From an uncultured Thermoleophilia bacterium (GTDB lineage Bacteria; Actinomycetota; Thermoleophilia; UBA2241), in assembly GCA_963808735.1 (NCBI GenBank), contig CAWEHE010000008.1, positions 192,719 through 256,718 on the forward strand: a DNA stretch of 64,000 nt, written 5' to 3'. Below are positions 14,423-63,812 of this stretch, in pieces. Every line of letters starts with the position of its first letter. The first letter of the stretch is position 1. The notes under the pieces were generated by a model. It did no database searches and was not told the origin of the DNA. It saw only the letters and a program-made list of their open reading frames with translations. Both the position numbers and the translations under genes were made by a program.

Positions 14423-14510
14423 GCCGGTGTGGCGGAACTGGTAGACGCGCTCGACTCAAAATCGGGTGCCCCGAAAGGGCGTGTGGGTTCGAGTCCCACC
14501 TCCGGCACCA
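14423..14510 (+). tRNA. tRNA-Leu (anticodon CAA)
   Basis: Cloverleaf by eye. Acceptor GCCGGTG/CTCCGGC (one mismatch), anticodon loop CTCAAAA, long variable arm, T-arm GTGGGTTCGAGTCCCAC, 3' CCA. Confidence 0.8.
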
Positions 14511-38764: not shown

Positions 38765-39780
38765 GTGTCCGAGCTGATCGACCAGCTGCAGCGCGCCCTG
38801 CGGGCGCGCCACTACAGCCGCCGCACCGAGCAGGCCTACTGCCTGTGGGTGCGGCGGTACGTCCGCTTTCACGGGCTCCGCCACCCGGCAGACATGGCGG
38901 AGCCCGAGATCAACGCCTTCGTCACGCACCTGGCCGTCACCGAGCACGTCAGCGCCTCGACGCAGACCCAGGCGCTCAGCGCGCTCCTCTTCCTCTACCG
39001 CCACGTGCTGCACCGCCGGGTGGGCGAGCTCCACGAGCTGGTCCGCGCCCGCAAGCAGCCCCGCCTGCCGGTCGTGCTGAGCAGGGAGGAGGTCCGCGCC
39101 GTCCTCCACGAGCTCGACCGCGACGACCGCCAGAGCTGGCTGATCGCCTCGCTGCTCTACGGCGCGGGCCTGCGGCTATCCGAGTGCCTGCGCCTCCGCG
39201 TGCTCGACCTCGACCTGGCCCGAGGCGAACTCACCGTCCGCTCGGGCAAGGGCGGCAAGGACCGCGCCACGACGCTCCCGCGGGCGCTCGTCCCCGACCT
39301 GCGCGAGCAGCTGCGCCGCGCGCGCCTCCTCCACGAGCGCGACCTCGCCGCCGGCTGGGGCGCGGTCGAGCTGCCCGCGGCCCTGGAGCGCAAGTACCCG
39401 CGCGCCCCCTGCGAGTGGCGCTGGCAGTGGGTGTTCCCGCAGCGCGCCGCTGGACGGACAGAGGCACCGGCCGCCAGGGCCGCCACCACGTCCACCCGAC
39501 CAGCGTCCAGCGCGCCGTCCACGACGCCGTGCGGCGCGCCGGCATCGACAAGCACGCCACCTGCCACACGCTCCGCCACTCCTTCGCCACGCACCTGCTC
39601 GAGACCGGCTACGACATCCGCACCATCCAGGAGCTCCTCGGCCACAAGGACGTCGGCACCACCATGATCTACACCCACGTCCTGCAGCGCGGCGGCCAGG
39701 GCGTGCGCAGCCCGCTCGACTCCCTCGCACTCCAGCCGGCAACAGGCCGCCCCCATGGCAGAGGGTCAGAAAGGGAGTAA
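38765..39780 (+). CDS. intI: integron integrase IntI (tyrosine recombinase), apparent frameshift near 39470
   Basis: N-terminal frame: ..LRTEQAY-like [17 protein letters not shown], plus the IntI-specific additional domain [22 protein letters not shown]-terminal part in the +1 frame: [64 protein letters not shown] (box II, catalytic HxxR and Tyr). Confidence 0.85.
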
Positions 39781-40124
39781 TTCATGTGTAGTAAGCGGCC
39801 GCCGCTGCCGCCCTTCGAGTTCGATGTGCGCAAGAGCAGGGTCAACAAGCTCAAGCACGGCATCGACTTCGTCGAGGCGCAGGCGCTGTGGATGGTCGAC
39901 GCGCTCGACAACGAGGCCGTGCGCCTGGCGGTGACCCGGCAGTCGGTGATCAGGGTCTGGCTCTCGGAGAGGATCGACCGGAACTGGCGCGCGCTGGAGG
40001 CCGAGGACGCGCGCCGCAAGAAGCAGACTGGATAATCGGTTCTGCGAGCCCTGTGGTACCTTCTTATGCACAAGTCGGAGGCTGCAGCAGATGTCTTCTC
40101 TCTACTGCAGAAATGCAGTTAGCG
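39781..40124 (+). other. attI region (candidate); proposed crossover GTTAGCG at about 40118
   Basis: Lies between the intI stop and the first attC-bounded cassette. The only GTTRR-like site before the first cassette ORF. Not independently verifiable. Confidence 0.25.
39784..40035 (+). CDS. BrnT/DUF497-like toxin-family ORF (possibly degenerate, no partner)
   Basis: PFEFDVRKSRVNKLKHGIDFVEAQAL resembles the DUF497 N-terminus. Shorter than family members. Confidence 0.3.
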   Translation: MCSKRPPLPPFEFDVRKSRVNKLKHGIDFVEAQALWMVDALDNEAVRLAVTRQSVIRVWLSERIDRNWRALEAEDARRKKQTG

Positions 40125-40145
40125 TGCACATGGCGGTGTCCGAGC

Positions 40146-40682
40146 GTGAACAAGCGGTTCCAGCTGGCCTTCATCGATGAACTCAAGGCGCGCGGGTTCA
40201 AGAAGGCCGGACCGACCTGGCGCAAGCAGGCGGGCGACGCCATCACTGTGTTCAATCTGCAGGGGTCGCAGTTCGGTCCGTCTGTCTACGTCAACTTGGG
40301 CGTCTACTTCCGCCCGCTCGGCGAACTCGAGCGGCCCGACGAAGACCAGTGCCATCTCAGGGCCCGGCTCAGCATGCTCGTCCCCGACGCCGTTCGGCTT
40401 CGCGACCTCCTCGACCTCGATCGGCCGATCCCGGATGACGTCCGCTTCGCCGAGCTGCGGCAGCTGGCCGTGGACTACGCGCTACCGTGGCTCGAGCGGA
40501 CGGCTACTCGCCAGGGCGCCAAGGCATGGGTCACCGCTGGGCCGAATGCCGTTGTACACGTGAAGGCGAGGGTACCTGGGGGTTGCCCGTTGGCACCTAA
40601 CAAGCGGATCAAGCTGGCTCGCCGCGGCGCCGGCGGCCTCACGGGAGGCCGGCGCGCTCGCAGCTTATCCGCGGTGCGTTAG
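40146..40682 (+). CDS. cassette 1 ORF: DUF4304-like hypothetical protein
   Basis: GTG about 40146 (VNKRFQLAFIDELKARGFKKAGPTWRK..). ORF runs into attC and uses the TAG inside the GTTAG core. Confidence 0.45.
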   Translation: MNKRFQLAFIDELKARGFKKAGPTWRKQAGDAITVFNLQGSQFGPSVYVNLGVYFRPLGELERPDEDQCHLRARLSMLVPDAVRLRDLLDLDRPIPDDVRFAELRQLAVDYALPWLERTATRQGAKAWVTAGPNAVVHVKARVPGGCPLAPNKRIKLARRGAGGLTGGRRARSLSAVR

Positions 40683-40685
40683 CCC
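40596..40685 (+). other. attC site 1
   Basis: ACCTAAC..AAGCGGATCAAGCTG..stem-loop..CAGCTTATCCGCGGTGC GTTAGCC. Confidence 0.8.
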
Positions 40686-40855
40686 GGTCGACGGAGCGTT
40701 GTTGAGACTCGTCCTCATCATGGTTGCTGTGCGGCGTACTGGTCGCCGGCGCGTCGCGCATGCGGTGAACCCACGCAGCCCGCCTCGCCCTCTCCCTCCC
40801 AGAGCGGCTGGGCATCCGTGTCGAGCGGTGCGGGCACCTGGACCCGAAGGCCTGG

Positions 40856-41146
40856 GTGCGCGGCGAGAGGTTCCGGCTCACCGTAGGACCGGTCCGCGTC
40901 CGCCTCGTGCAAGAGACTCCTGCCGGGGAGCAGGTTGCTCTCGGCCTCGAGCTCGTCCCGCTCGCACCCGCCGCCGCTCGCAACCAGGCGAGCGCGGGCA
41001 CGAGCCGCGGCGTTCCGAGCGAAGACGGCCGGTCCATGGTCACCGAGTTCCGCACGACCAGGGACGTCCTCGCAGGCACCTACTGCCTCGAACTGCGCGG
41101 GACCGGCCGCTACACAGTCACGGTCTACAGCGCGACTTCGCCATGA
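40856..41146 (+). CDS. cassette 2 ORF: hypothetical protein
   Basis: 96-aa ORF, GTG start, beta-rich C-terminus (TYCLELRGTGRYTVTVYS). Other ORFs in this cassette are low complexity. Confidence 0.3.
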   Translation: MRGERFRLTVGPVRVRLVQETPAGEQVALGLELVPLAPAAARNQASAGTSRGVPSEDGRSMVTEFRTTRDVLAGTYCLELRGTGRYTVTVYSATSP

Positions 41147-41189
41147 GCGCTGCTCGCAGGCATGTAGGCCGGGGGTTGTACAGAGGACG

Positions 41190-41279
41190 GGCTAACAAGC
41201 GGATCAAGCTGGCTCGCCGAAGCGCCGGCGGCCTCACGAGCGGCCGGCGCGCTCGCAGCTTATCCGCGGTGCGTTAGGC
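41190..41279 (+). other. attC site 2
   Basis: GGCTAAC..GTTAGGC, type A arms. Confidence 0.8.
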
Positions 41280-41299
41280 GCACAGAGGCGGTGGCGCGG

Positions 41300-41735
41300 T
41301 GAAGCGAGCGTCAGCGGTCATCGTGCTCGCCGCGGGTTCAAGAAGGCCGGACTCGCCTGGCGCGAGCGGCGGGCGACGCCTCACTGTGTTCATCTGCAGC
41401 GGGTCGCAGCTCGGACGCGGCTGTCTACGGCAGACGTGGGAGCATCCGCCCGCTCGGCGAACTCGAGCTCGGCCGGCCGATGCCAGTGCCGCTCGGGCTC
41501 GGCTCGAGCTACTCGCCGCTGACGCCGCGTCGGCTTCGTCGAGCTCATCGACCTCGACCTGCTCAGTGCCGGCGACGTCGGCTTCGCTCGGCTGCGGCAG
41601 CTGGCGTGGACTACGCGCTGCCGTCTCGAGCGGCGGTCGCCTCGCCTACGGGCGCTCGAGGCATGGGCGCCGCTGGCGTCGGATGCCGTCGCAGCGCGAA
41701 GGCGAGCAGAGTAGCTGGGGGTTGGCGTGACGGCA
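41300..41735 (+). pseudogene. cassette 3: decayed paralog of the cassette-1 DUF4304 gene
   Basis: Nucleotide similarity to 40190..40590 (GGGTTCAAGAAGGCCGGAC, CACTGTGTTCA.CTGCAG, CGCCCGCTCGGCGAACTCGAGC, GAGCTGCGGCAGCTGGC.GTGGACTACGCGCT) with many indels and no intact ORF. Confidence 0.45.
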
Positions 41736-41823
41736 CCAACAAGCGGATCAAGCTGGCTCGCCGCGGCGCCGACGGCCTCACGAGAGGCCGGCGCGCTCGC
41801 AGCTTATCCGCGGTGCGTTAGGC
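41734..41823 (+). other. attC site 3
   Basis: CACCAAC..GTTAGGC, type A arms. Confidence 0.8.
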
Positions 41824-41839
41824 GCGGCAACGGGGCAGC

Positions 41840-42188
41840 ATGAATCAACCGATCCCAGACGTGACCATGGCCGACCTCGACCGGATCGTACGCGCGACTT
41901 CCCGCCGGGGGTCGCACGGGCAGGTTGTCAACATTCTGATTCGCTACGGCAGGGGAGACGGCGGAAAGAATCGCGTCTGCGCCGCCGCGTTGAAGCTAGC
42001 CGATGGCGACATCGAGCAGCTGGAGCACTACGATCTGACGAGGCCAGAAGCGACTACCGCGACGTCTTCGGCCTGGGCCGAGTATCCGGCCTACATGGAC
42101 TGCGTGCTCGGACCCAACGGACGAGAGCGAAGCCAAGGCGCTGATCGACGCTGACTGGGAGCAGTATCAGGACTGGTTCAGCCGGTGA
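41840..42188 (+). CDS. cassette 4 ORF: hypothetical protein (apparent frameshift near 42120)
   Basis: ATG 41840 (MNQPIPDVTMADLDRIVRAT..). The protein-like C-terminus DESEAKALIDADWEQYQDWFSR* is in the +1 frame and ends just before attC. Confidence 0.35.
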
Positions 42189-42195
42189 GCAAGCC

Positions 42196-42285
42196 GCCTA
42201 ACAAGCGCATCAACCTGACGCGCCCAACGGCTTCTGTAGCAACCTCAGACCGCAGCCCGCGCAGGTTATGCGCGGTGCGTTAGCC
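42196..42285 (+). other. attC site 4
   Basis: GCCTAAC AAGCGCATCAACCTG..CAGGTTATGCGCGGTGC GTTAGCC, type B arms. Confidence 0.8.
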
Positions 42286-42308
42286 GGGGCAGGTCGGGAG
42301 GTCACAGG

Positions 42309-42748
42309 ATGTCCACTGAACCAGGCAGGATTTCAGCCGCCGCCGGAGCCCGGCGGACCGCGTTGCCGCGCCCGTCGCGCTGGCGCCGCGCCGCTGGAAC
42401 TGGGGCGCCTTCATGTTCACCTGGCTCTGGGGCCTGTTCAACGGTGCCTGGTGGCCGCTGCTCGGCCTTCTGCTCGCGCTCGTCCCCTCGGTCGAGCTTT
42501 GGCGCCACGCGCTCCCCGGCGGCGGCAGCGTCTGGGTCTCCACCGGCACCCTGCTCTACACCGCCTGGTCGGTGTTCTGCGGCCTCATGGGCGACCGCTG
42601 GGCCCTTCGCAGCCGCCGGTGGCGTGACGCCGCCCACTTCCGCAGCGCTCAGCACAACTGGGCGGTGGCCGCCCTCGTCGTCGCCATCGTCCTCGCCGTC
42701 GTGGTCGTCGCCGTGCTCGCCGCGGCGTCGGCGGGGCTCATCTCCTGA
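42309..42748 (+). pseudogene. cassette 5: DUF2628-family membrane protein, frameshifted copy
   Basis: Near-identical to cassette 7 but with one C missing in GAGCCCCGG (about 42345). ATG 42309 reads out of frame; the FNWGAF-type motif WNWGAFMFTWLWGLF is in the other frame (track ORF 42413..42748). Confidence 0.5.
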
Positions 42749-42770
42749 CCATATGTCTGTTGTTGCGCCC

Positions 42771-42861
42771 GGCTAACAAGCGGATCAAGCTGACTCGACA
42801 AACGGCTTCCGTAGTATCCTCGAAGCGGAAGCGCTCGCAGCTTATCCGCGGTGCGTTGGGC
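42771..42861 (+). other. attC site 5
   Basis: GGCTAAC..GTTGGGC. Confidence 0.8.
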
Positions 42862-42918
42862 AGAGCAGGCGGCCCGCGGGATTTCCCTTCTCGCGCCGTA
42901 GGAAGGGGGAGGTGAGCC

Positions 42919-43266
42919 GTGTCGAAGCGCAGCATCATCGTCCTGTTCGTGATCGTCGCCGCCGGCGTTTGATCCTGGCCGTCACGATTCCGCCTCTCCT
43001 CAGCTCGCCGTCCCAGATCGCCCAGAAGGCAGCCGGTACCTGGCAGGAGGTTGGTGAGGCGCCTGCATACACCATGCAGGTCGTTGGCGCCGGCTCCACC
43101 TATCTGGTCAGCTACCCGCGCTGGCGCTATGACCGTGAAGGCTTTCTCTCTTCAGGGCGACGAGCTCGTCGGGGGCGGTGGCGAGAACACCATGAACGAC
43201 ATGGTGAAGACCATCACCTACGACAATGGGGCCGATCAGCTCACCATCAGCGACGAAGAGCGGTGA
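42919..43266 (+). CDS. cassette 6 ORF: small secreted protein (two compensating apparent frameshifts)
   Basis: GTG 42919 after GGGGGAGGTGA. Signal/TM VSKRSIIVLFVIVAAGV continues as LILAVTIPPLL only after a 1-nt shift at GTTTGATC. Frame returns near TTTCTCTCTT to give ..LQGDELVGGGGENTMNDMVKTITYDNGADQLTISDEER*. Confidence 0.3.
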
Positions 43267-43588
43267 CACGGTACACCCTTCAGCGCGTAGACCGTCCGGC
43301 CGGGATCGTCGGCGTGATGCGCGAGGCGGGCGGACGGTACCCGGGCCTCAGGCGCATGCCCAACGTGCTCATCGAGGTCCGCTGTGCAGTCGGCGGATGG
43401 CCCCGTCGTCTCCAACGCGACCTCCGGCAAGAAGGGGACGTTCAAAGTCACCGTCGCACCGGGTCGCTACTGGGTCGTACCGGTGGCCAAGGGCGACGAG
43501 CAGGTGGTGGCCGATGCGGTGTCGGTCGAGGCAGGTTCGTACGTCGCGGCGAAGCCGTTCTTCTCAGTCAGGTGAGCTGCAGTGGCCT

Positions 43589-43675
43589 GCCCAACAAGCA
43601 CATCAACCTGATGCACCCGAAGGGAGCAGTGGACTCACGGTCAACGGCGCACAGGTTATGTGCCGGACGTTAGCC
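43589..43675 (+). other. attC site 6
   Basis: GCCCAAC AAGCACATCAACCTG..CAGGTTATGTGCCGGAC GTTAGCC, type B variant. Confidence 0.75.
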
Positions 43676-43698
43676 GGGGCAGGTCGGGAGGTCACAGG

Positions 43699-44139
43699 AT
43701 GTCCACTGAACCAGGCAGGATTTCAGCCGCCGCCGGAGCCCCGGCGGACCGCGTTGCCGCGCCCGTCGCGCTGGCGCCGCGCCGCTGGAACTGGGGCGCC
43801 TTCATGTTCACCTGGCTCTGGGGCCTGTTCAACGGTGCCTGGTGGCCGCTGCTCGGCCTTCTGCTCGCGCTCGTCCCCTCGGTCGAGCTTTGGCGCCACG
43901 CGCTCCCCGGCGGCGGCAGCGTCTGGGTCTCCACCGGCACCCTGCTCTACACCGCCTGGTCGGTGTTCTGCGGCCTCATGGGCGACCGCTGGGCCCTTCG
44001 CAGCCGCCGGTGGCGCGACGCCGCCCACTTCCGCAGCGCTCAGCACAACTGGGCGGTGGCCGCCCTCGTCGTCGCCATCGTCCTCGCCGTCGTGGTCGTC
44101 GCCGTGCTCGCCGCGGCGTCGGCGGGGCTCATCTCCTGA
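43699..44139 (+). CDS. cassette 7 ORF: DUF2628-family membrane protein (intact copy)
   Basis: ATG 43699 with GGGAGG RBS. MSTEPGRISAAAGAPADRVAAPVALAPRRWNWGAFMFTWLWGLFNGAWWPLLG.., 2-3 TM helices. Confidence 0.6.
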   Translation: MSTEPGRISAAAGAPADRVAAPVALAPRRWNWGAFMFTWLWGLFNGAWWPLLGLLLALVPSVELWRHALPGGGSVWVSTGTLLYTAWSVFCGLMGDRWALRSRRWRDAAHFRSAQHNWAVAALVVAIVLAVVVVAVLAAASAGLIS

Positions 44140-44172
44140 CCATATGTCTGTTGTTGCGCCCGGCTAACAAGC

Positions 44173-44262
44173 GGATCAAGCTGACTCGACAAACGGCTTC
44201 CGTAGTATCCTCAAGCGGAAGCGCTCGCAGCTTATCCGCGGTGCGTTAGGCGCACAGTAAGA
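44173..44262 (+). other. attC site 7
   Basis: GGCTAAC..GTTAGGC. Near-identical to attC 5. Confidence 0.8.
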
Positions 44263-44559
44263 CGGAACGTGTGAGACCGTCCTCTCTGAGCGTGAACGAA
44301 CTGGTAGTTGGCGCTCGAGCATGCGCTGAACGCCAGCGCCCGCTCATCGCCCGACCTTCTTCGCAGACGCTGCCGTGTGGAGTCGATGCGTGCTACGCTG
44401 GCCTCGGCTCGCAGCGGAGCGGAGCCGGCTACACCGCCGGCGACGTAAGCACGTGCACGAGACCGGTGGAGCAGCTGCGCATCCAGAACTCGGTCGCGCT
44501 CGCACGACGACGGCGTTCGCCGGTGAGCGCCGTGTCTTCGAGCTCGCGGCTCCGACGCG

Positions 44560-44743
44560 ATGCGGCAGGCCATCGACACCGAGGTCCGCGCGATCTCGGA
44601 CGCTCCTCGCAGCTCGCTGCACTGCTTCGAGATCACTGTGCGGCGATGCGCTCGCTGCATCAATCATGGTCTCGCGCGACTACGCAAAAGCGATGTTCCG
44701 GCACGACGAGGTCCGGGCGTTGTCGGAGGCGAATGGTGCCTAA
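44560..44743 (+). CDS. cassette 8 ORF: small hypothetical protein (frame uncertain)
   Basis: ATG 44560 (MRQAIDTEVRAISDAPRSSLHCFEITV..). A +1 frame ends ..MVSRDYAKAMFRHDEVRALSEANGA* using the TAA inside the attC inverse core. Confidence 0.2.
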
Positions 44744-44826
44744 CAAGCGGATCAAGCTGGCTCGCCAAAGCGCCGCGGCAAGACGAGAGGCCGCGGCGCT
44801 CGCAGCTTATCCGCGGTGCGTTAGAC
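44738..44826 (+). other. attC site 8
   Basis: GCCTAAC..GTTAGAC, type A. Confidence 0.8.
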
Positions 44827-44846
44827 AGGCACGGTGAGGCGGCAAG

Positions 44847-45302
44847 GTGGACCTCAATCTGCGACCGGCCTCGAAGCGAGATCGGGAGTTCCTCTACGCG
44901 CTGCACTGCTCCACCATGCGCGACGTGATCGAGCAGACATGGGGCTGGGATGAGGCCTGGCAGCGTGCCGACTTCGAGAAGCGTTTCGAGGTGTGCGCCG
45001 TCTCGATCATCGAGGCCGGAGCGCGCTCTGTCGGGAGTCTGTGGCTCGAGCAGCGACCCGACTCGCTCTACATCCACGAACTGCAGGTGACGCCCCCACA
45101 ACAGGGTAGGGGAATCGGCACGGCGGTGATCGAGATGGTGATCGAGCAGGGTGCCAGTCGCGGACTGCCGATCGTCCTCTCGGTCGTCCCGGCGAACCCA
45201 CGCGCCCGCGATTTGTACGAACGATTGGGCTTCAGAGTGACGTGCGTCGAACCACCATTCATTCGCATGCGACATGACGCGCGCCTAGCGGGAGCTGTCT
45301 AA
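44847..45302 (+). CDS. cassette 9 ORF: GNAT-family N-acetyltransferase
   Basis: 151 aa. Motif A QQGRGIGTAVIEMVIEQ. Stop TAA lies within the inverse core GTCTAAC. Confidence 0.75.
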   Translation: MDLNLRPASKRDREFLYALHCSTMRDVIEQTWGWDEAWQRADFEKRFEVCAVSIIEAGARSVGSLWLEQRPDSLYIHELQVTPPQQGRGIGTAVIEMVIEQGASRGLPIVLSVVPANPRARDLYERLGFRVTCVEPPFIRMRHDARLAGAV

Positions 45303-45386
45303 CATGCGCGTCAACCTGACGCGGTCAACGGTTTCTGTAGTAACTTGGGAGCGCGGCCCGCGCAGGTTACGCGCGGTGCGTTGGAC
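45297..45386 (+). other. attC site 9
   Basis: GTCTAAC ATGCGCGTCAACCTG..CAGGTTACGCGCGGTGC GTTGGAC, type B. Confidence 0.8.
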
Positions 45387-45403
45387 CGACTGACGGAGGG
45401 GTT

Positions 45404-45940
45404 GTGAGGATCGGGGCCGTTCTTCTATTCGTTGTCGCACTCTTGGGGCTCTCCGCATGCGGTCAGTCATCGTCCACCTTTGCGCCGTCGCCCACGTCGA
45501 CGCCCGCCGCTGTCAGCTATGCCGACCCGGCCGAACTGTACGCCGCTATCGAGAAGGCGGGCGCGCCGAAGGTCGAGGGCTTCGGCAGCGGCACGTTCAG
45601 CGAGGGCGGCTCGATGCCAGCTGACGCCAAGGCCGAGCGCGGCAACTTCATGGCCGCCATCTCCTCCGACCGCTACATGCTCTCGCTCGCCGACGGGACG
45701 CCGGCCGTGTCGATGGTTGCAGCCGTCTTCCCTGACGCGGCCTTGCGGGACCTTGGCGTGGCTTTCGGGCAGCATCTCGCCGCCGCGCTCGGGAACCCGT
45801 CTGAGCCGCAACTGCAGGGACCGAACTGGCTCATCTGGGGCGACGAGGAGGCGCTGCGGGCGATCCAGGGCGCGATTGGCGGCGAGATGGGTCGCACGCC
45901 CACCGTCACGGTGTCGCCCGAAGCGGGAGCCGCATCTTGA
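45404..45940 (+). CDS. cassette 10 ORF: lipoprotein, hypothetical
   Basis: Signal peptide plus lipobox LLGLSAC. 178 aa. Confidence 0.6.
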   Translation: MRIGAVLLFVVALLGLSACGQSSSTFAPSPTSTPAAVSYADPAELYAAIEKAGAPKVEGFGSGTFSEGGSMPADAKAERGNFMAAISSDRYMLSLADGTPAVSMVAAVFPDAALRDLGVAFGQHLAAALGNPSEPQLQGPNWLIWGDEEALRAIQGAIGGEMGRTPTVTVSPEAGAAS

Positions 45941-45974
45941 CGTTGCGCAAGGCCATGTGGCAGGTGTTAGAGCG

Positions 45975-46064
45975 GTCCAACCAGCGGATCAAGCTGGCTC
46001 GCCGCAGCGCCGGCGGCCTCACGAGAGGCCGTCGCGCTCGCAGCTTATCCGCGGTGCGTTGGGC
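45975..46064 (+). other. attC site 10
   Basis: GTCCAAC..GTTGGGC, type A. Confidence 0.8.
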
Positions 46065-46097
46065 GCATCCACACCCTATCGCGGAGGTCGGGATGCC

Positions 46098-46529
46098 ATG
46101 AATCGTGAGCACGTGCCGGTGGGCTTCCTGCTGATCGCCGCCTTCTACGCGCTGGGCGTCGCTGCGGTGACGTTCACGCTCTTCACCAACCGGGATGAGG
46201 TCGGCGCCCAGCTCGCTGCCGTGCATGGTCTCACCATGCTTGCCGGCCCTGCCAGCATGCTGCTCACGATCGCGGCGGGCGCCATGGTCGTGGTCGCGTT
46301 CTGCAGACCGCGGCCCTGGGCCTTCTGGCTCGTCGTCGGGTACATGGTGTACCTGCTCATCATCCCCCGACTCATGGTGGGGCCGAACGGCATCTCGGTC
46401 TTCGCCAACGTCGTCTGGCCTCTGTTCATGCTGGCCTATCTCCTTTGGCGGCATCGCTACTTCGGTATCGGCAGGCCCTTGGAGCGCCCAACAAGCGCAT
46501 CGAGCAGAACGCCAGCAGGTCTGCCGTGA
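46098..46529 (+). CDS. cassette 11 ORF: hypothetical 4-TM membrane protein
   Basis: ATG 46098 after GGAGGTCGGG. MNREHVPVGFLLIAAFYALGVAAVTF.. 143 aa. 3' end overlaps attC. Confidence 0.5.
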   Translation: MNREHVPVGFLLIAAFYALGVAAVTFTLFTNRDEVGAQLAAVHGLTMLAGPASMLLTIAAGAMVVVAFCRPRPWAFWLVVGYMVYLLIIPRLMVGPNGISVFANVVWPLFMLAYLLWRHRYFGIGRPLERPTSASSRTPAGLP

Positions 46530-46572
46530 ACCGGCAGGCCGACCGCGTCTGCTCATGCGCGGTGCGTTAGCC
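46486..46572 (+). other. attC site 11
   Basis: GCCCAAC AAGCGCATCGAGCAG..CTGCTCATGCGCGGTGC GTTAGCC, type C arms. Confidence 0.8.
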
Positions 46573-46604
46573 CCATCAACTGCACTGCCTGGGAGGATGC
46601 GTCC

Positions 46605-47267
46605 GTGAATCCCATCGAACGCAGGGTTCGGGCCCACATCATGAACCGCCTGCTCGAGACGGGCGAGGCGCCGAGCGTGAGCCAGGTCTCGGACTCGCTT
46701 GAGATCTCGCGAGCAGACGTGATCGCCGGTCTTCACTCACTCGCAGCTCAGCATCGTCTCGTCTTGCGGCCCGCCTCGGACGCGATCTGGATGGCGCATC
46801 CGTTCTCAGGGATCGAGACGGACTTTGTAGTGAACGCGGCCGGCCGCACATGGTACGCGAACTGCGTTTGGGACGGGCTTTCGATTCTCGGTCACGTCGG
46901 CGACGGACGACTTGAGACGCACTCGCCACAGACAGGGGAGGCCATCCGCTTCGACGTCGAAGACGGCCGCGTAGTAGGTGATGCGATCGTCCACTTCCTC
47001 GTGCCTGCGAAGCTGTTCTGGGATGACATAGGGTTCACGTGAGCCAACATCTCGGCCTTCCGGTCGGAAGGCGAACTCAGCTCGTGGCTGACGTCGACGG
47101 GGTATGCGGTCGGTGCAGTGGTGAGCCCGCAGACCGTCTATGACCTCGGGCGCGACTGGTACGGAACCAGACTCGACCTGGACTTTCAGCCGTTCACGCC
47201 CGAGCAGGCGCAGGACACCTTCGCGAAGCATGGGCTTGTCGGCGCGTTCTGGTCGCTGGTCTCATGA
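46605..47267 (+). pseudogene. cassette 12: MerB-like organomercurial lyase interrupted by an in-frame TGA (47040-47042)
   Basis: N-terminal HTH-like region, then TWYANCVWDGLSILGHVG and ..FLVPAKLFWDDIGFT-TGA-ANISAFRSEGELSSWL..LVS*. The two pieces are in the same frame and total about 220 aa, like MerB. Confidence 0.5.
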
Positions 47268-47269
47268 GG

Positions 47270-47356
47270 GGCTAACAAGCGCATCGAGCAGAACGCCACA
47301 AGGTCCGCCGCACAGCGGCAGGCCAGCCGTGTCTGCTCATGCGCGGTGCGTTAGTC
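47270..47356 (+). other. attC site 12
   Basis: GGCTAAC..GTTAGTC, type C. Confidence 0.8.
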
Positions 47357-47425
47357 ACAGCCTCCTCCACTGGTCGAGAGGGTACGTTAGTGGTACCGTG
47401 ACCGGTAGTACAGGAGGTAGCGTCA

Positions 47426-47701
47426 ATGGCATCAGTACCCGACATCGTACCCATCACCGACCTGCGCCAGGACGCCTCGGGCGTGATCAAGCGGGCCGCC
47501 GACACCCAGCAGCCGGTGTTCATCACGCAGCGCGGTCGCGCGTCCGCCGTCGTCGTCAGCGCGAAGGCCTACGAGCGCACGCAGCACGAGCTCGAGATCC
47601 TGCGCCTGCTCGCCACCGGCGAGGCCGAGATCGAGGCCGGCACCGGCCACGCGCTGGCAGACGTGTTGGCCGAGGCTGACGAGCTGCTCGGCAGGCCGTG
47701 A
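47426..47701 (+). CDS. cassette 13: Phd/YefM-family antitoxin
   Basis: 91 aa. PITDLRQDASGVIKRAADTQQPVFITQRGRASAVVVSAKAYE. Confidence 0.75.
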   Translation: MASVPDIVPITDLRQDASGVIKRAADTQQPVFITQRGRASAVVVSAKAYERTQHELEILRLLATGEAEIEAGTGHALADVLAEADELLGRP

Positions 47702-48006
47702 GCCGCAGGGTCCTCTTCACCCCCGCAGCCCGCGAGCAGTTCCTCGCGGCGCTCGCCTACATCGCGGGCGACGACCCGGCGGCAGCGCGGAATCTGCGCG
47801 ACCGCGCCGGCGCATCGCTCGCGCACCTCGCCGACTACCCGGAATCGGGGCGCGTGCTGCGTGAGTTCCCTGACCTGCCGTTTCGCGAGGTCATCGTGCC
47901 GCCGTACCGCTTCTTCTACCGCGTCAAGGACGACGCGGTGTGGGTGGTCGCGGCCTGGCACTCGGCCCAGCTTCCCGGCGAGCCGGAGGACGTTGGGCGT
48001 GACTAA
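47698..48006 (+). CDS. cassette 13: ParE/RelE-family toxin
   Basis: GTG overlaps the antitoxin stop. LFTPAAREQF..EVIVPPYRFFYRV..VWVVAAWH. Stop TAA inside the inverse core GACTAAC. Confidence 0.7.
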   Translation: MSRRVLFTPAAREQFLAALAYIAGDDPAAARNLRDRAGASLAHLADYPESGRVLREFPDLPFREVIVPPYRFFYRVKDDAVWVVAAWHSAQLPGEPEDVGRD

Positions 48007-48091
48007 CAAGCGGATCAAGCTGGCTCGCCGGCAGCGTCTACGGTACACTTCGTACCGTGAGCGCTCGCAGCTTATCCGCGGTGCGTTGGGC
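48001..48091 (+). other. attC site 13
   Basis: GACTAAC..GTTGGGC, type A with a divergent central loop. Confidence 0.8.
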
Positions 48092-48184
48092 ATACGCTCG
48101 GCGACCCGTGGCGGAGTCCGGAGCGCAGGGTGGACGTTGCCCTCGGGTCGTTGCATTTCCGCAGTCTCCGGTTATACTCACGGT

Positions 48185-48418
48185 ATGAAGACGGCGATCT
48201 CCATACCCGACGACCTGTTCGCCGACGCCGAGCAGCTGGCTCGGGAGCTGAAGAAGTCGCGCAGCAGCCTCTACGGGGACGCGGTGCGTGAGTACGTCGC
48301 CCGCCACTCCGCCGAGAGCATCACCGAGGGCCTGGATCGCCTCTGCGACGAGGTCGATTGCCGCAGCGATTTCGCCGGTGCCGCTGCGCGCCGCACCTTC
48401 GAGCGTAGCGACTGGTGA
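48185..48418 (+). CDS. mazE: cassette 14: ribbon-helix-helix (CopG/MazE-like) antitoxin
   Basis: 77 aa. MKTAISIPDDLFADAEQLARELKKSRSSLYGDAVREYV. Confidence 0.65.
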   Translation: MKTAISIPDDLFADAEQLARELKKSRSSLYGDAVREYVARHSAESITEGLDRLCDEVDCRSDFAGAAARRTFERSDW

Positions 48419-48756
48419 CCGCCCAGGGCGAGGTCTGGTGGGCCGACCTGGGCGAGCCCTCCGGCTCCGAGCCCGGCTTCCGCCGCCCCGTCGTCGTCGT
48501 GCAGGGCGACGCCTTCAACCGCAGCCGCATCGCCACCGTCGTCTGCGTCGCGCTGACCAGCAACCTGCGCTGGGCCGACGCCCCCGGCAACGTCCTCCTC
48601 AGCGCGCGCGCTACCGGTCTGCCCAAGGATTCCGTGGCCAATGTCTCGCAGCTCGTGACCGTCGACCGCGAGGCGCTCACCGAGCGCGTCGGCGCCCTGC
48701 CCGCGAAGAAGCTCGAGCTTGTGCTGCTCGGCATCGACATCGTCCTCGGGCGTTGA
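48415..48756 (+). CDS. mazF: cassette 14: MazF/PemK-family endoribonuclease toxin
   Basis: GTG overlaps the antitoxin stop. GEVWWADLGEPSGSEPGFRRPVVVVQGDAFN.. Confidence 0.75.
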   Translation: MTAQGEVWWADLGEPSGSEPGFRRPVVVVQGDAFNRSRIATVVCVALTSNLRWADAPGNVLLSARATGLPKDSVANVSQLVTVDREALTERVGALPAKKLELVLLGIDIVLGR

Positions 48757-48763
48757 CGCGATT

Positions 48764-48853
48764 GCCCAACAAGCGGATCAAGCTGACTCGCAGATGCGCC
48801 GGCGGCCTCACGGGAGGCCGGCGCGCTCGCAGGTTATGCGTGGTGCGTTAGGC
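48764..48853 (+). other. attC site 14
   Basis: GCCCAAC..GTTAGGC, mixed A/B arms (AAGCTGACTCGC / CAGGTTATGCGTGG). Confidence 0.8.
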
Positions 48854-48875
48854 GCGCGGAGGACCACGGAGACCG

Positions 48876-49478
48876 ATGTATTACGGGCTGCTTATCTACC
48901 CCAACGGCGTGGACGAGGCCCTCGTAGGCAGGATACGTCGTAAGTACGATCCCACGGTCGATGTCATCGCCCCGCACGTGCCGGTCGTCTATCCGGTTCC
49001 CGACGGGGTGGGACGCGACCTGCTCATCTCTCACATTCGGAACGTCACGCTCGCCTGCGCGCCCTTCGAGATCCGCCTCGGCGCCCTGCACCGGTCAGCC
49101 GACCACTGGCTCTTCTTCACGCCGGTCGACGGCAAGGAGGACCTGAGGCGCCTCCATCTAGGTCTCCACACCGGCCTCCTGGCCGAGTTCCGCGAAGCGG
49201 ACAGGGACTACGTACCGCACGTCGGCCTCGGCCACTTCATGAGAGAAGGCGCGACCTACGACTGGGAGAACCCACGCGAAGAGGACTTCGATGCCGAGAG
49301 GTACGAGGCCGCCGTCCGGGAGGCGCAGCCCCTCCTCGATGGTCCAGCCGAGCGTATCGACACGCTCCATCTGGTCACCATCCCCGACGCGGCGGTCGAG
49401 TGGTTCAGTGGAGAGGGGTCGACGTTCCCGAGGGACTCCCGAGCTGAAGAGGTGTGCGCGTTCACGTTCGGCGCCTAA
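48876..49478 (+). CDS. cassette 15 ORF: hypothetical protein (possibly 2H-phosphoesterase-like)
   Basis: 200 aa, no confident family. Stop TAA inside the inverse core GCCTAAC. Confidence 0.5.
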   Translation: MYYGLLIYPNGVDEALVGRIRRKYDPTVDVIAPHVPVVYPVPDGVGRDLLISHIRNVTLACAPFEIRLGALHRSADHWLFFTPVDGKEDLRRLHLGLHTGLLAEFREADRDYVPHVGLGHFMREGATYDWENPREEDFDAERYEAAVREAQPLLDGPAERIDTLHLVTIPDAAVEWFSGEGSTFPRDSRAEEVCAFTFGA

Positions 49479-49562
49479 CAGGCGCATCGAGCAGATTGGC
49501 CCGCAGGCTATGATGTCGGCGAAGGCGCAGGGAGCCAACTGCTCATGCGCGGTGCGTTCGGT
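49473..49562 (+). other. attC site 15
   Basis: GCCTAAC AGGCGCATCGAGCAG..CTGCTCATGCGCGGTGC GTTCGGT, type C. Confidence 0.75.
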
Positions 49563-49581
49563 GGACCATGGAGGCGGGACG

Positions 49582-49980
49582 GTGAAGGCGCTGCTCGGCA
49601 TCGCGATCTTGTTGCTGGCGACGGTTCTCATCGCCTGCGGCGATGCGCAGCAGCCAGCGACGTGCAGCATCGAAGAGCCGTTGCTCTCAGTCCTCGTCAC
49701 GCCCGGGGGCCTCTACGTCGATGACCAAGTCGAACCGGTCACCCTCGCGCAGCTCGACACGATGTTCGCGGCCCTCGCCGATCAGCACGGCGAGGTACGC
49801 TTGGACAGCTTGGCCCCACTCGGCGGCTTCGCGCCGACAAGCTGGGAGCGCTCGAAGGTCGACCACCACTCGGGGCAGGTGGCTGCCCTCGTCAGCAAGC
49901 ATGGCCTCCACATCGTCACCGAGGCCGGCCGCATGCCGGTACGGGGCTGGGCGAGCCCGCCTGGGGGTGTCGACCCGTGA
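49582..49980 (+). CDS. cassette 16 ORF: lipoprotein, hypothetical
   Basis: GTG 49582 after GGAGG. VKALLGIAILLLATVLIACGD (lipobox LIAC). Confidence 0.55.
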   Translation: MKALLGIAILLLATVLIACGDAQQPATCSIEEPLLSVLVTPGGLYVDDQVEPVTLAQLDTMFAALADQHGEVRLDSLAPLGGFAPTSWERSKVDHHSGQVAALVSKHGLHIVTEAGRMPVRGWASPPGGVDP

Positions 49981-49984
49981 GGCC

Positions 49985-50068
49985 ACCGAACAAGCGCATC
50001 AAGCTGGCCCGCAGTAGACTCTACGCTGAAAGCCGTAGCCCGCGCAGGTTATGCCCGGTGCGTTAGAC
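49985..50068 (+). other. attC site 16
   Basis: ACCGAAC AAGCGCATCAAGCTG..CAGGTTATGCCCGGTGC GTTAGAC. Confidence 0.75.
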
Positions 50069-50085
50069 CGACCAATCGAGGACCG

Positions 50086-50670
50086 TTGATTCGCACCCCC
50101 AGCCGCGCCGCCGTCGACCTGTACTGGATCCCCCTGGGCGCCGGTGGCCACGTCGTGCGGCTCAACGGCAAGGTCTTCGAGGCCGTGGTGTCAACGTTCG
50201 AACGCCGGTCCCCCCTCGACCTCTATCACTCGGCGCTTGAGGTGCGCGTGCCGGAGGGCCGCTACACGATTGAGAGTGCCCCGGTTCCGAACGCCCACGC
50301 GCATGAGCGTGGGGCCGTCTCTGGCGGTCCCGTCGGGAGCCGTTGGGCCGGGCGCCTGCGCATCTTTCGCTACGAGATCCGGTGCTGGCCTGGCGGGGTC
50401 ATCCCCGACCTCGGGGAGGCGGTCGAGAGCCCTCAGCGAATGACCGAGGATGAGGCGCGCGCCCGGAGTGTGCTCGCTCTCGCGCCCTGCGTGCCCACAC
50501 CCGTCTGGGGGCGCGATGAGCTGCAAGCCGGCGAGATGTGGAACTCGAACTCGATCATCTCCTGGCTCCTTGTGCGCAGCGGTCTGGGTGTGGAGTCGGC
50601 CAGTATGCCGAGTGGCGGGCGCGCTCCCGGATGGGATGCGGGTCTCGTCGTGGCGCGGCGGCAGGTCTAA
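50086..50670 (+). CDS. cassette 17 ORF: hypothetical protein
   Basis: TTG 50086 after GAGGAC. 194 aa. Stop TAA inside the inverse core GTCTAAC. Confidence 0.45.
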   Translation: MIRTPSRAAVDLYWIPLGAGGHVVRLNGKVFEAVVSTFERRSPLDLYHSALEVRVPEGRYTIESAPVPNAHAHERGAVSGGPVGSRWAGRLRIFRYEIRCWPGGVIPDLGEAVESPQRMTEDEARARSVLALAPCVPTPVWGRDELQAGEMWNSNSIISWLLVRSGLGVESASMPSGGRAPGWDAGLVVARRQV

Positions 50671-50749
50671 CAAGCGCAGCGAGCAGAACGCCAGCACGTA
50701 GACTCAATCCCAAACGCTGCCGCGTCTGCTCATGCGCGGTGCGTTAGCG
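50665..50749 (+). other. attC site 17
   Basis: GTCTAAC AAGCGCAGCGAGCAG..CTGCTCATGCGCGGTGC GTTAGCG, type C. Confidence 0.8.
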
Positions 50750-63387: not shown

Positions 63388-63772
63388 AAGGCAAGCCAGG
63401 TGGCCGCGAGCGGGTCGCGTCGCGGAGCTCTTCGGAGCCCGCAAGGCTCCCGTCCGAGGAAAGTCCGGACACCGCAGAGCAGGGCGCTGGCTAACGGCCA
63501 GCCGGGGAAACCCGAGGGAAAGCGCAACAGAGAGCAGACCGCCAGCGGCCCCTTTCGAGGGGTGCGGGTAAGGGTGAAACGGTGAGGTAAGAGCTCACCA
63601 GCGGTCCTGGCGACAGGCCGGCTCGGCAAGCCCCGCCCGGTGCAAGACCAAATAGGGGAGCGTTCGAGGGTTGCTCGTCCGAGGCTCCCGGGTTTCGGTC
63701 GCATGAGGCGCACGGCAACGTGCGTCCCAGATGGATGGTCACCCACGACAGGATCCGGCTTACGGCTTGCTA
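63388..63772 (+). ncRNA. rnpB: RNase P RNA, bacterial type A
   Basis: GGAAAGTCCGGAC (P4), GGGTGAAACGGTGAGGTAAGAGCTCACCAG, ACAGGATCCGGCTTACGGCTTGC. 5' GCAAGCC pairs with 3' GGCTTGC (P1). Confidence 0.85.
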
Positions 63773-63774
63773 CT

Positions 63775-63812
63775 GAAAGGCCCCTCGGTCCAGCTGGACG
63801 AGGGGCCTTTCC
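63775..63812 (+). terminator. hairpin directly downstream of rnpB
   Basis: AAAGGCCCCTCG-gtccagctggac-GAGGGGCCTTT. Confidence 0.45.

Follow-up and report, generated by a model that had tools for sequence, protein, structure and literature searches.

Whether an in-frame TGA marks a broken gene or a codon that is translated is the question raised by a MerB-like gene in a 64,000-nucleotide stretch of DNA from an uncultured Thermoleophilia bacterium (contig CAWEHE010000008.1; the whole stretch is called the window below). The open reading frame (ORF) starts with a GTG at 46605 on the + strand, runs for 145 codons to 47039 and meets a TGA at 47040-47042, directly after a segment ending in ...FWDDIGFT (VPAKLFWDDIGFT). 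Beyond this codon the same frame continues for 74 sense codons, reading ANISAFRSEGELSSWL...FWSLVS (also given as ANISAFRSEGELSSWLTSTGY...HGLVGAFWSLVS), up to a second TGA at 47265-47267. On the model of Escherichia coli, the UGA at 47040-47042 is very probably recoded as selenocysteine (Sec) in the product of a single gene with the MerB fold, and the cassette gene is best explained as one gene of 220 codons (46605-47267), not as a 145-codon gene plus debris. The gene comprises the following features (the three closest copies, L001-L003, are described further on).

46591..46597, + strand: Shine-Dalgarno-like GGGAGGA, 7 nucleotides before the GTG, read from the sequence and conserved in L001-L003
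46605..47039, + strand: first part of the coding sequence, 145 codons, covering an N-terminal winged-helix region and the first two thirds of the MerB domain
47040..47042, + strand: in-frame TGA, probably read as Sec (residue 146), from its conservation, its Cys homologues and its alignment with Cys159 of MerB
47043..47267, + strand: second part of the coding sequence, 74 codons and the true stop TGA (47265-47267), completing the MerB fold
47055..47072, + strand: putative selenocysteine insertion sequence (SECIS)-type hairpin within the coding sequence, from comparative evidence and codon freezing

MerB similarity on both sides of the TGA

The N-terminal part alone matched the Pfam MerB family PF03243 with 41 bits (profile positions 1-77), and the 74-residue tail alone matched profile positions 87-126. 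The read-through product scored 75.2 bits (cutoff 27; E 6e-21) over positions 1-126 of 126, membership over the entire domain being obtained solely with the TGA read through. A profile of the family (HMMER) matched the solved MerB2 structure 5c17 at E 4.8e-22 and the MerB structures 3f2g, 3fn8 and 1s6l at about 1e-12, and in these alignments the TGA column fell on Cys159 of 'SFCCHVHFFAS', with 'GFT-U-ANISAFRS' opposite MerB 'QSFCCHVHFFAS'. Cys87 (codon 46863-46865) aligned with MerB Cys96 and Asp90 (codon 46872-46874) with Asp99, 'YANCVWD' standing opposite 'YAWCALD'; Cys87 was invariant across the family alignment (A3), and Asp90 was invariant among the forms with TGA at the site (Sec-forms). 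Two positions of the MerB catalytic triad Cys96/Asp99/Cys159 are accordingly represented by Cys87 and Asp90, while the Cys159 column is occupied by the UGA, presumed Sec. By analogy, MerB-type chemistry is plausible for Cys87/Asp90/Sec146, though not identical to that of MerB proper.

An earlier note on the same DNA, made from its letters, had described a TGA-ended ORF whose frame goes on for 74 codons to a stop just before an attC site, with a total length of about 220 aa, as in MerB, and its coordinates were confirmed (the inverse core of the attC begins at 47270, and 220 codons compare with about 212-220 aa in MerB). The resemblance to alkylmercury lyase and the MerB-like character of the C-terminal segment, both of which it had proposed, are borne out by the PF03243 alignment of the read-through product (75 bits, E 6e-21) and by the separate match of the tail to positions 87-126. 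Its suggestion that the TGA lies near a conserved Cys motif of MerB proved right as well, the TGA column being Cys159 of that motif.

Structure prediction was performed on P0001, a 67%-identical homologue. With an alignment that included full-length relatives carrying Cys at the site (Cys-forms), the AlphaFold 2 (AF2) model reached a predicted local distance difference test score (pLDDT) of 93.8 over the full length and a predicted template-modelling score (pTM) of 0.90; it superseded a first run, with an alignment deep for the N-terminal part only, in which pLDDT was below 50 at residues 130-220. In the model the C-terminal 74 residues are placed in the same domain as the rest, adding strands and helices, and the only significant matches in the PDB found by Foldseek were MerB2 and MerB (template-modelling scores 0.57-0.73, E about 1e-10).

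These alignments and the model bear on the possibility of two products, that is, a functional 145-residue protein and a 74-codon tail that is separately initiated or conserved for RNA-level reasons. Family members share no start codon beyond the TGA, both MerB profile positions 87-126 and the MerB structures can be aligned with the tail, the confident AF2 model predicts its strands and helices to lie in one domain with the N-terminal part, and the N-terminal part alone is without the second metal ligand. Two products would fit with the 145-aa ORF being predicted everywhere by gene callers, with a GTG at 47118 that opens a 49-codon ORF in the window, and with the collapse of the C-terminal model when a deep C-terminal alignment was lacking; on balance they are considered very improbable. 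An exact look-up of the 145-aa product of the window returned no database record.

Conservation of the TGA, its Cys counterparts and the downstream hairpin

Eighty loci with 36-96% amino-acid identity were fetched from GTDB species genomes, and the codon at the site was TGA in all 77 in which it could be read, TGC or TGT occurring in none. The carriers include Thermoleophilia, other Actinomycetota, Acidimicrobiia, Caldilineaceae, Promineifilum, Acidobacteriota, Gemmatimonadota/Longimicrobiales, NC10, Desulfatibacillum, Bacteroidetes, Gammaproteobacteria and others. A scan of soil metagenomes was seeded with four Cys-containing relatives, yet it returned 78 TGA forms among 80 relatives. At the protein level, 118 of the 120 top homologues in the first search (90%-identity clusters) stop exactly after ...GFT, the other two being full-length with W at the site, as a code-4 gene call of TGA gives, and 85 of the 150 closest 50%-identity clusters also stop at the UGA site.

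The frame beyond the TGA bears the marks of coding sequence. Between 73 and 75 in-frame codons follow the TGA in 66 of the 77 genome loci (63-75 codons for the conserved stretch among homologues), and in-frame stops are absent from the downstream region, where the other two frames contain 130 and 87 stops. Divergence at the three codon positions is 0.44/0.41/0.58 downstream of the TGA, similar to the upstream part (0.36/0.38/0.59). Four Thermoleophilia copies differ downstream by 23 synonymous and 21 non-synonymous codons (summed over pairs), a pattern resembling that upstream (42 and 32, respectively). The UGA is thus conserved in orthologues with coding conservation on both sides, as expected of a selenoprotein gene.

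Had a Cys codon (TGC or TGT) simply mutated to TGA in the cassette, leaving a dead gene with a decaying tail, a single base change would have been enough, and cassettes distant from the integron promoter can decay; the adjoining integrase gene is itself frameshifted. Such a pseudogene would, however, not be expected to share its TGA with 77 of 77 genome homologues from many phyla and 78 of 80 metagenome relatives, nor to keep a downstream frame that is intact and under coding constraint, with the 23 synonymous against 21 non-synonymous differences of the Thermoleophilia copies, and the 36-96% spread in identity excludes that the homologues are copies of one recent pseudogene. Of the two alternatives that the earlier note had put forward, nonsense mutation and recoding, the former is refuted, and is left with practically no probability, by the conservation of the TGA, the downstream constraint, and the Cys homologues and covarying hairpin described below; the same data lend strong support to the latter.

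More distant full-length homologues (221-235 aa, 25-40% identity) have Cys at the UGA column. Many of them, from Sphingomonadales, Myxococcaceae and other groups, bear the annotation 'organomercurial lyase', and TGT or TGC was verified at the column in the DNA of eight such loci. Homologues with Cys opposite the UGA, a further property of selenoproteins, were in this way found. Within the soil metagenomes, a TGT (Cys) form occurs among TGA forms (L114/L116; WWDDIVYTCTTMNLFRSE versus WWDDIVFT*STMNLFRSE), in which the hairpin has decayed to TTT CGA TCT, as though Sec had been converted to Cys and the SECIS lost. One database protein of 128 aa (P0127) has Gly at the Sec column (GFTGSTMTAFRLE) and an internal deletion, and may come from a chimeric contig or represent a copy in decay.

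The hairpin consists of a 5' arm GCCUUCC (47055-47061), a loop GGUC (47062-47065) and a 3' arm GGAAGGC (47066-47072), and supplies the SECIS-like structure that the earlier note had proposed to look for downstream. A 7-bp stem with a GGUC loop occurs in every Sec-form, at a fixed spacer of 12 nucleotides after the UGA, in a gapless alignment from which RNAalifold predicts the helix independently; as required of a bacterial selenoprotein gene, a stem-loop with an apical G/U follows shortly 3' of the UGA. Among 95 distinct sequences, 91.7% of cells are paired, versus 49-63% when the partners are slid by 1-3 columns, and compensatory changes occur at six of the seven pairs (pair 25:36, for example, is UA in 51, UG in 22, CG in 17 and GC in 3). 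The observed covariation was reached by none of 500 shuffles. Some compensatory changes alter the protein, replacing A..G by G..A or L..E on the flanks of FRSE, or turning FRSE itself into LRSE (CUCCUCC/GGAGGAG) or VRSG (CUCGUCC/GGGCGAG). Synonymous codons within the hairpin are frozen: Arg is encoded by CGG in 77 of 77 and Ser by TCG in 73 of 73, where the rest of these genes uses CGG for 34% of Arg and TCG for 40% of Ser, while the eight Cys-forms use CGA, CGT, AGG, CGC and CGG for Arg and TCT, TCC, AGC and TCG for Ser at the same positions. Fold energies at the site are -2.3 to -4.9 kcal/mol in the Cys-forms and on average -10.5 over 154 Sec-forms. Folded as a single sequence, the region gives unremarkable z-scores (-0.3 and -1.2), and the support for the candidate SECIS is comparative, not thermodynamic. 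At 1914 (- strand) of the window, another TGA has a 7-bp stem and a GGUC loop at the same distance behind it and lies in a frame open on both sides; this frame is a low-complexity, R/G/E-rich antisense translation, and the combination was judged to be chance.

The codon could also be recoded without selenium, UGA being read as Trp, Cys or Gly by a near-cognate or suppressor tRNA or under a code in which UGA is sense, with a hairpin that merely stimulates read-through. In the window, TGA terminates the Phd, MazF and MerB-like genes, and it is the final stop of the MerB-like gene in 54 of 76 genome loci; because TGA is an ordinary terminator in the carrier genomes, recoding must be site-specific, and because it is the commonest true stop of the MerB-like gene and its neighbours, UGA is not reassigned. 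The two database entries with W at the site speak for such recoding, and Sec insertion is itself a deduction. Against it stand the classic signature of Sec, namely a catalytic Cys position for which Cys homologues exist, and a SelB-type GGUC loop at the distance found in fdhF, and Trp as a metal ligand would inactivate a MerB-type site. Read-through of this kind is regarded as improbable.

If the UGA is decoded as Sec, the step would follow the established bacterial pathway (SelA, SelB, SelC and SelD, with the SECIS inside the ORF), the hairpin at 47055-47072 recruiting SelB with GTP and Sec-tRNA(Sec) to a ribosome paused at the UGA. In the product, a winged helix at the N-terminus would precede the MerB core, with an active site Cys87/Asp90/Sec146 corresponding to Cys96/Asp99/Cys159 of organomercurial lyase. 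By analogy with MerB, an organometal(loid) would be held between thiolate and selenolate while Asp90 protonates the carbon, so that the carbon-metal bond is cleaved. Selenium would be expected to bind tighter and to react faster than sulfur; in MerB mimics, selenium analogues cleave Hg-C bonds faster than sulfur analogues (PMC11639659). Sec insertion, activity in the host and the substrate are what we infer from these analogies. The gene itself is best explained as belonging to a large and widespread soil-bacterial family, apparently uncatalogued, in which Sec appears to be the rule.

The integron cassette and its host

The MerB-like gene lies within a chromosomal array of integron cassettes, for which the following features were recorded.

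38765..39780, + strand: integron-integrase-like tyrosine recombinase gene, split over two frames (ORFs; Pfam Phage_int_SAM_4 and Phage_integrase)
40000..50747, + strand: array of cassettes with some 16 attC sites; the MerB-like one is roughly the 11th
46486..46572, + strand: attC of the preceding cassette, GCCCAAC to GTTAGCC (repeat searches and sequence)
47270..47356, + strand: attC of the MerB-like cassette, GGCTAAC (inverse core) to GTTAGTC

The recombination point between G and TT at 46566/46567 forms the 5' boundary of the cassette, and the same boundary is found in L001-L003. From the flanking attC boundaries, the MerB-like cassette extends over 46567-47350, and its ORF fills the cassette only with the first TGA read through. 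On the + strand, 16 attC 3' ends were located between 40682 and 50747, versus about 0.5 expected by chance. Flanking attC sites and an array next to intI, which together define an integron cassette, are therefore present, the intI being frameshifted: its N-terminal part matches SAM_4 and Phage_integrase positions 3-106, and its C-terminal part, in another frame, positions 103-169, which points to a frameshifted pseudogene or else to an assembly error (indel). The intI-like gene is oriented like the cassettes, not divergently from them. Other cassettes of the array carry GNAT, Phd/ParE, MazF and 2'-5' RNA ligase-like genes. The attC sites fall into two sequence families, one up to 44824 (...CAGCTTATCCGCGGTGCGTTAG) and another comprising the MerB-like cassette and several later ones (...CTGCTCATGCGCGGTGCGTTAG). 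Integrons were long thought absent from Actinobacteria.

The closest copies of the gene (94-96% identity) are in Thermoleophilia metagenome-assembled genomes (MAGs; CAVTPJ01 and CAVPJG01, loci L001, L002 and L003) and share the cassette boundaries and attC; one Thermoleophilia MAG holds two copies, on different contigs. Similar attC-like repeats flank a homologue of 59% identity from a further Actinomycetes MAG (L013, 4800-9650), and an NC10 homologue (L008, 5802-6869) is flanked by direct repeats of 155 nucleotides, 913 nucleotides apart, while no such flanking repeats were seen at five other loci checked. From these repeat findings, the MerB-like gene is cassette-borne in some lineages and chromosomal in others, and they suggest that several lineages carry it on a cassette. 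In the Thermoleophilia lineage, the gene is best explained as a mobile one that travels as an integron cassette. The neighbours of the gene in the window are unrelated cassettes, and a merR, merT/P and merA context was not found there; among the 77 genome loci, the top neighbour cluster is the antisense shadow of the MerB-like gene itself. Elsewhere in the window, a bacterial RNase P RNA of class A (63388-63777, + strand; 268 bits) and a tRNA-Leu(CAA) (14423-14510, + strand) were the only Rfam and ARAGORN matches.

Several observations weigh against Sec decoding of this gene or qualify its support. No Rfam SECIS model matched the hairpin within 46950-47200 at E values up to 10 (a c-di-GMP-II match in this interval was set aside as chance). 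The FRSE encoded by the hairpin is partly conserved in the Cys-forms too, and part of the conservation of the hairpin sequence is for this reason at the protein level. Neither the selA, selB and tRNA-Sec that the earlier note had proposed to look for nor selD turned up in the window or the 1.14 Mb of loci fetched, as is expected by chance, a search (tblastn with E. coli SelA, SelB and SelD) that covers the window and these loci and is uninformative for the whole genome; it gave one weak GTPase-domain match, in L014, and tRNA-Sec was not detected by Rfam and ARAGORN over the whole window or by ARAGORN on 60 loci. Neighbour clustering revealed neither a mer operon nor any conserved neighbour among the 77 genome loci. 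The carriers are all MAGs or metagenome contigs, none of them cultured, and the family is known from sequence alone. Finally, the cassette is about the 11th of its array and the integrase is frameshifted, which makes expression in the host uncertain.

A related view is that the Sec family is genuine while the gene is silent or non-functional in this particular host, for want of either Sec insertion or transcription. The position of the cassette, the frameshifted intI and the lack of sel genes within the window are consistent with it; on the other hand, TGA, hairpin and frame have all been preserved in the four diverged Thermoleophilia copies, an argument for selection acting in this lineage. 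A silent gene is accordingly held to be unlikely, and a MerB-fold protein with Sec at residue 146 is retained as the preferred reading.

Implications and relation to known systems

The chances are about even that a large selenoprotein family absent from the catalogues (MerB fold, Cys-x-x-Asp...Thr-Sec) has here its first recognised member, that across aerobic soil phyla its members normally carry Sec rather than Cys, and that its gene moves between lineages as a self-contained integron cassette with the SECIS inside the ORF. For annotation, hundreds of database entries would be truncated at the UGA and without one catalytic ligand, which selenoprotein-aware annotation would correct. For selenium biology, the family would represent a second, independent-looking clade of MerB-type selenoproteins, concentrated in soil Acidobacteriota, Gemmatimonadota, Actinomycetota and Chloroflexota, groups that are scarce in selenoproteome catalogues. 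With regard to metal biogeochemistry, the putative Sec/Cys/Asp site is a candidate high-affinity demethylase of methylmercury or other organometals in organisms without mer operons, and selenium and sulfur chemistry in Hg-C cleavage could be compared directly on the Sec and Cys forms that occur naturally. A cassette that needs the Sec machinery of its recipient for translation beyond codon 145 would be unusual, host-dependent cargo. If the reading is true, this would be the first selenoprotein gene shown to be integron-borne, and it would imply selenium-dependent cleavage of carbon-metal(loid) bonds in soils, independent of mer operons.

Among known SECIS elements, that of E. coli fdhF (sequence verified against 5,419 E. 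coli genomes) is likewise a hairpin inside the ORF, directly 3' of the UGA and with an apical GGUC loop, which occupies nucleotides 22-25 counted from the U of the UGA in fdhF and 23-26 in the window gene. The stem of the window gene differs in being a perfect 7 bp, without the bulged U and without the extended lower helix.

The Cys-form sister clade (for example, Qipengyuania gaetbuli P0336 and Sphingopyxis sp. LC81 P0325) is full-length and collinear with the window family (221-232 aa), with Cys at the UGA column and F-R-[ST]-[ED] after it. Its members differ in having 27-35% identity, C-x-x-C as the first motif where the Sec-forms have C-x-x-D, no hairpin, and free codon choice at the equivalent nucleotides. 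Their neighbours are also different, being a major facilitator superfamily (MFS) transporter, or aminotransferase class V and ornithine cyclodeaminase. At three Cys-form loci (L161, L163 and L164) the gene overlaps the stop codon of the upstream gene, which encodes the MFS transporter in Qipengyuania and, in two other genomes, the aminotransferase class V, itself preceded by ornithine cyclodeaminase. These neighbours hint at a metabolic role rather than mercury resistance.

MerB and MerB2 (EC 4.99.1.2; PDB 3F0P, 1S6L and 5C17) share with the window gene the fold, the catalytic positions and a length of about 212-220 aa. They differ from it by an identity of only 18-20%, by a second metal ligand that is Cys where the window gene would have Sec, and by the merA/merR/merT context that the window gene lacks. 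The window protein scored 28.2 bits against a cutoff of 193 and 18.7 against 200 with the MerB equivalog models (NCBIfam NF009710 and NF033555, respectively), for which the best E-values among 41 family members scanned were 2.4e-16 and 1.9e-13.

A close precedent is SaoL (NF040728), a MerB-like organometallic lyase selenoprotein with a C-U motif, encoded in the nine-gene SAO locus of strict anaerobes (Haft & Gwadz 2022, bioRxiv 10.1101/2022.07.06.499078). It is the sole MerB-like entry in the selenoproteome catalogues of 2022 and 2026 (PMC9312934, PMC13188914), and literature searches returned no other MerB-type selenoprotein and no Sec-containing integron cassette. Both groups have the MerB fold (PF03243), Sec (presumed, in the window family) at the Cys159 position and equivalents of Cys96 and Asp99, and the database entries of both are systematically truncated at the UGA, the true C-terminus lying 50-75 residues beyond. 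The window protein, however, scored 28.1 bits on NF040728 against a cutoff of 140 (best E-value among the same 41 members, 1.7e-13), and its family has the motif G-F-T-U-A instead of C-U, the residue before U being T in the genome loci and A in a metagenome relative (L144), never Cys. The 77 loci of the window family show no nine-gene sao neighbourhood or conserved neighbour cluster, and the gene occurs as an integron cassette in the window and in one or more further lineages. Whereas the hosts of SaoL are strictly anaerobic, carriers of the window family belong to soil, aerobic-type phyla (Actinomycetota, Acidobacteriota, Gemmatimonadota and Chloroflexota). The window gene is best described as a new, probably Sec-containing branch of the MerB superfamily, distinct from both MerB proper and SaoL.

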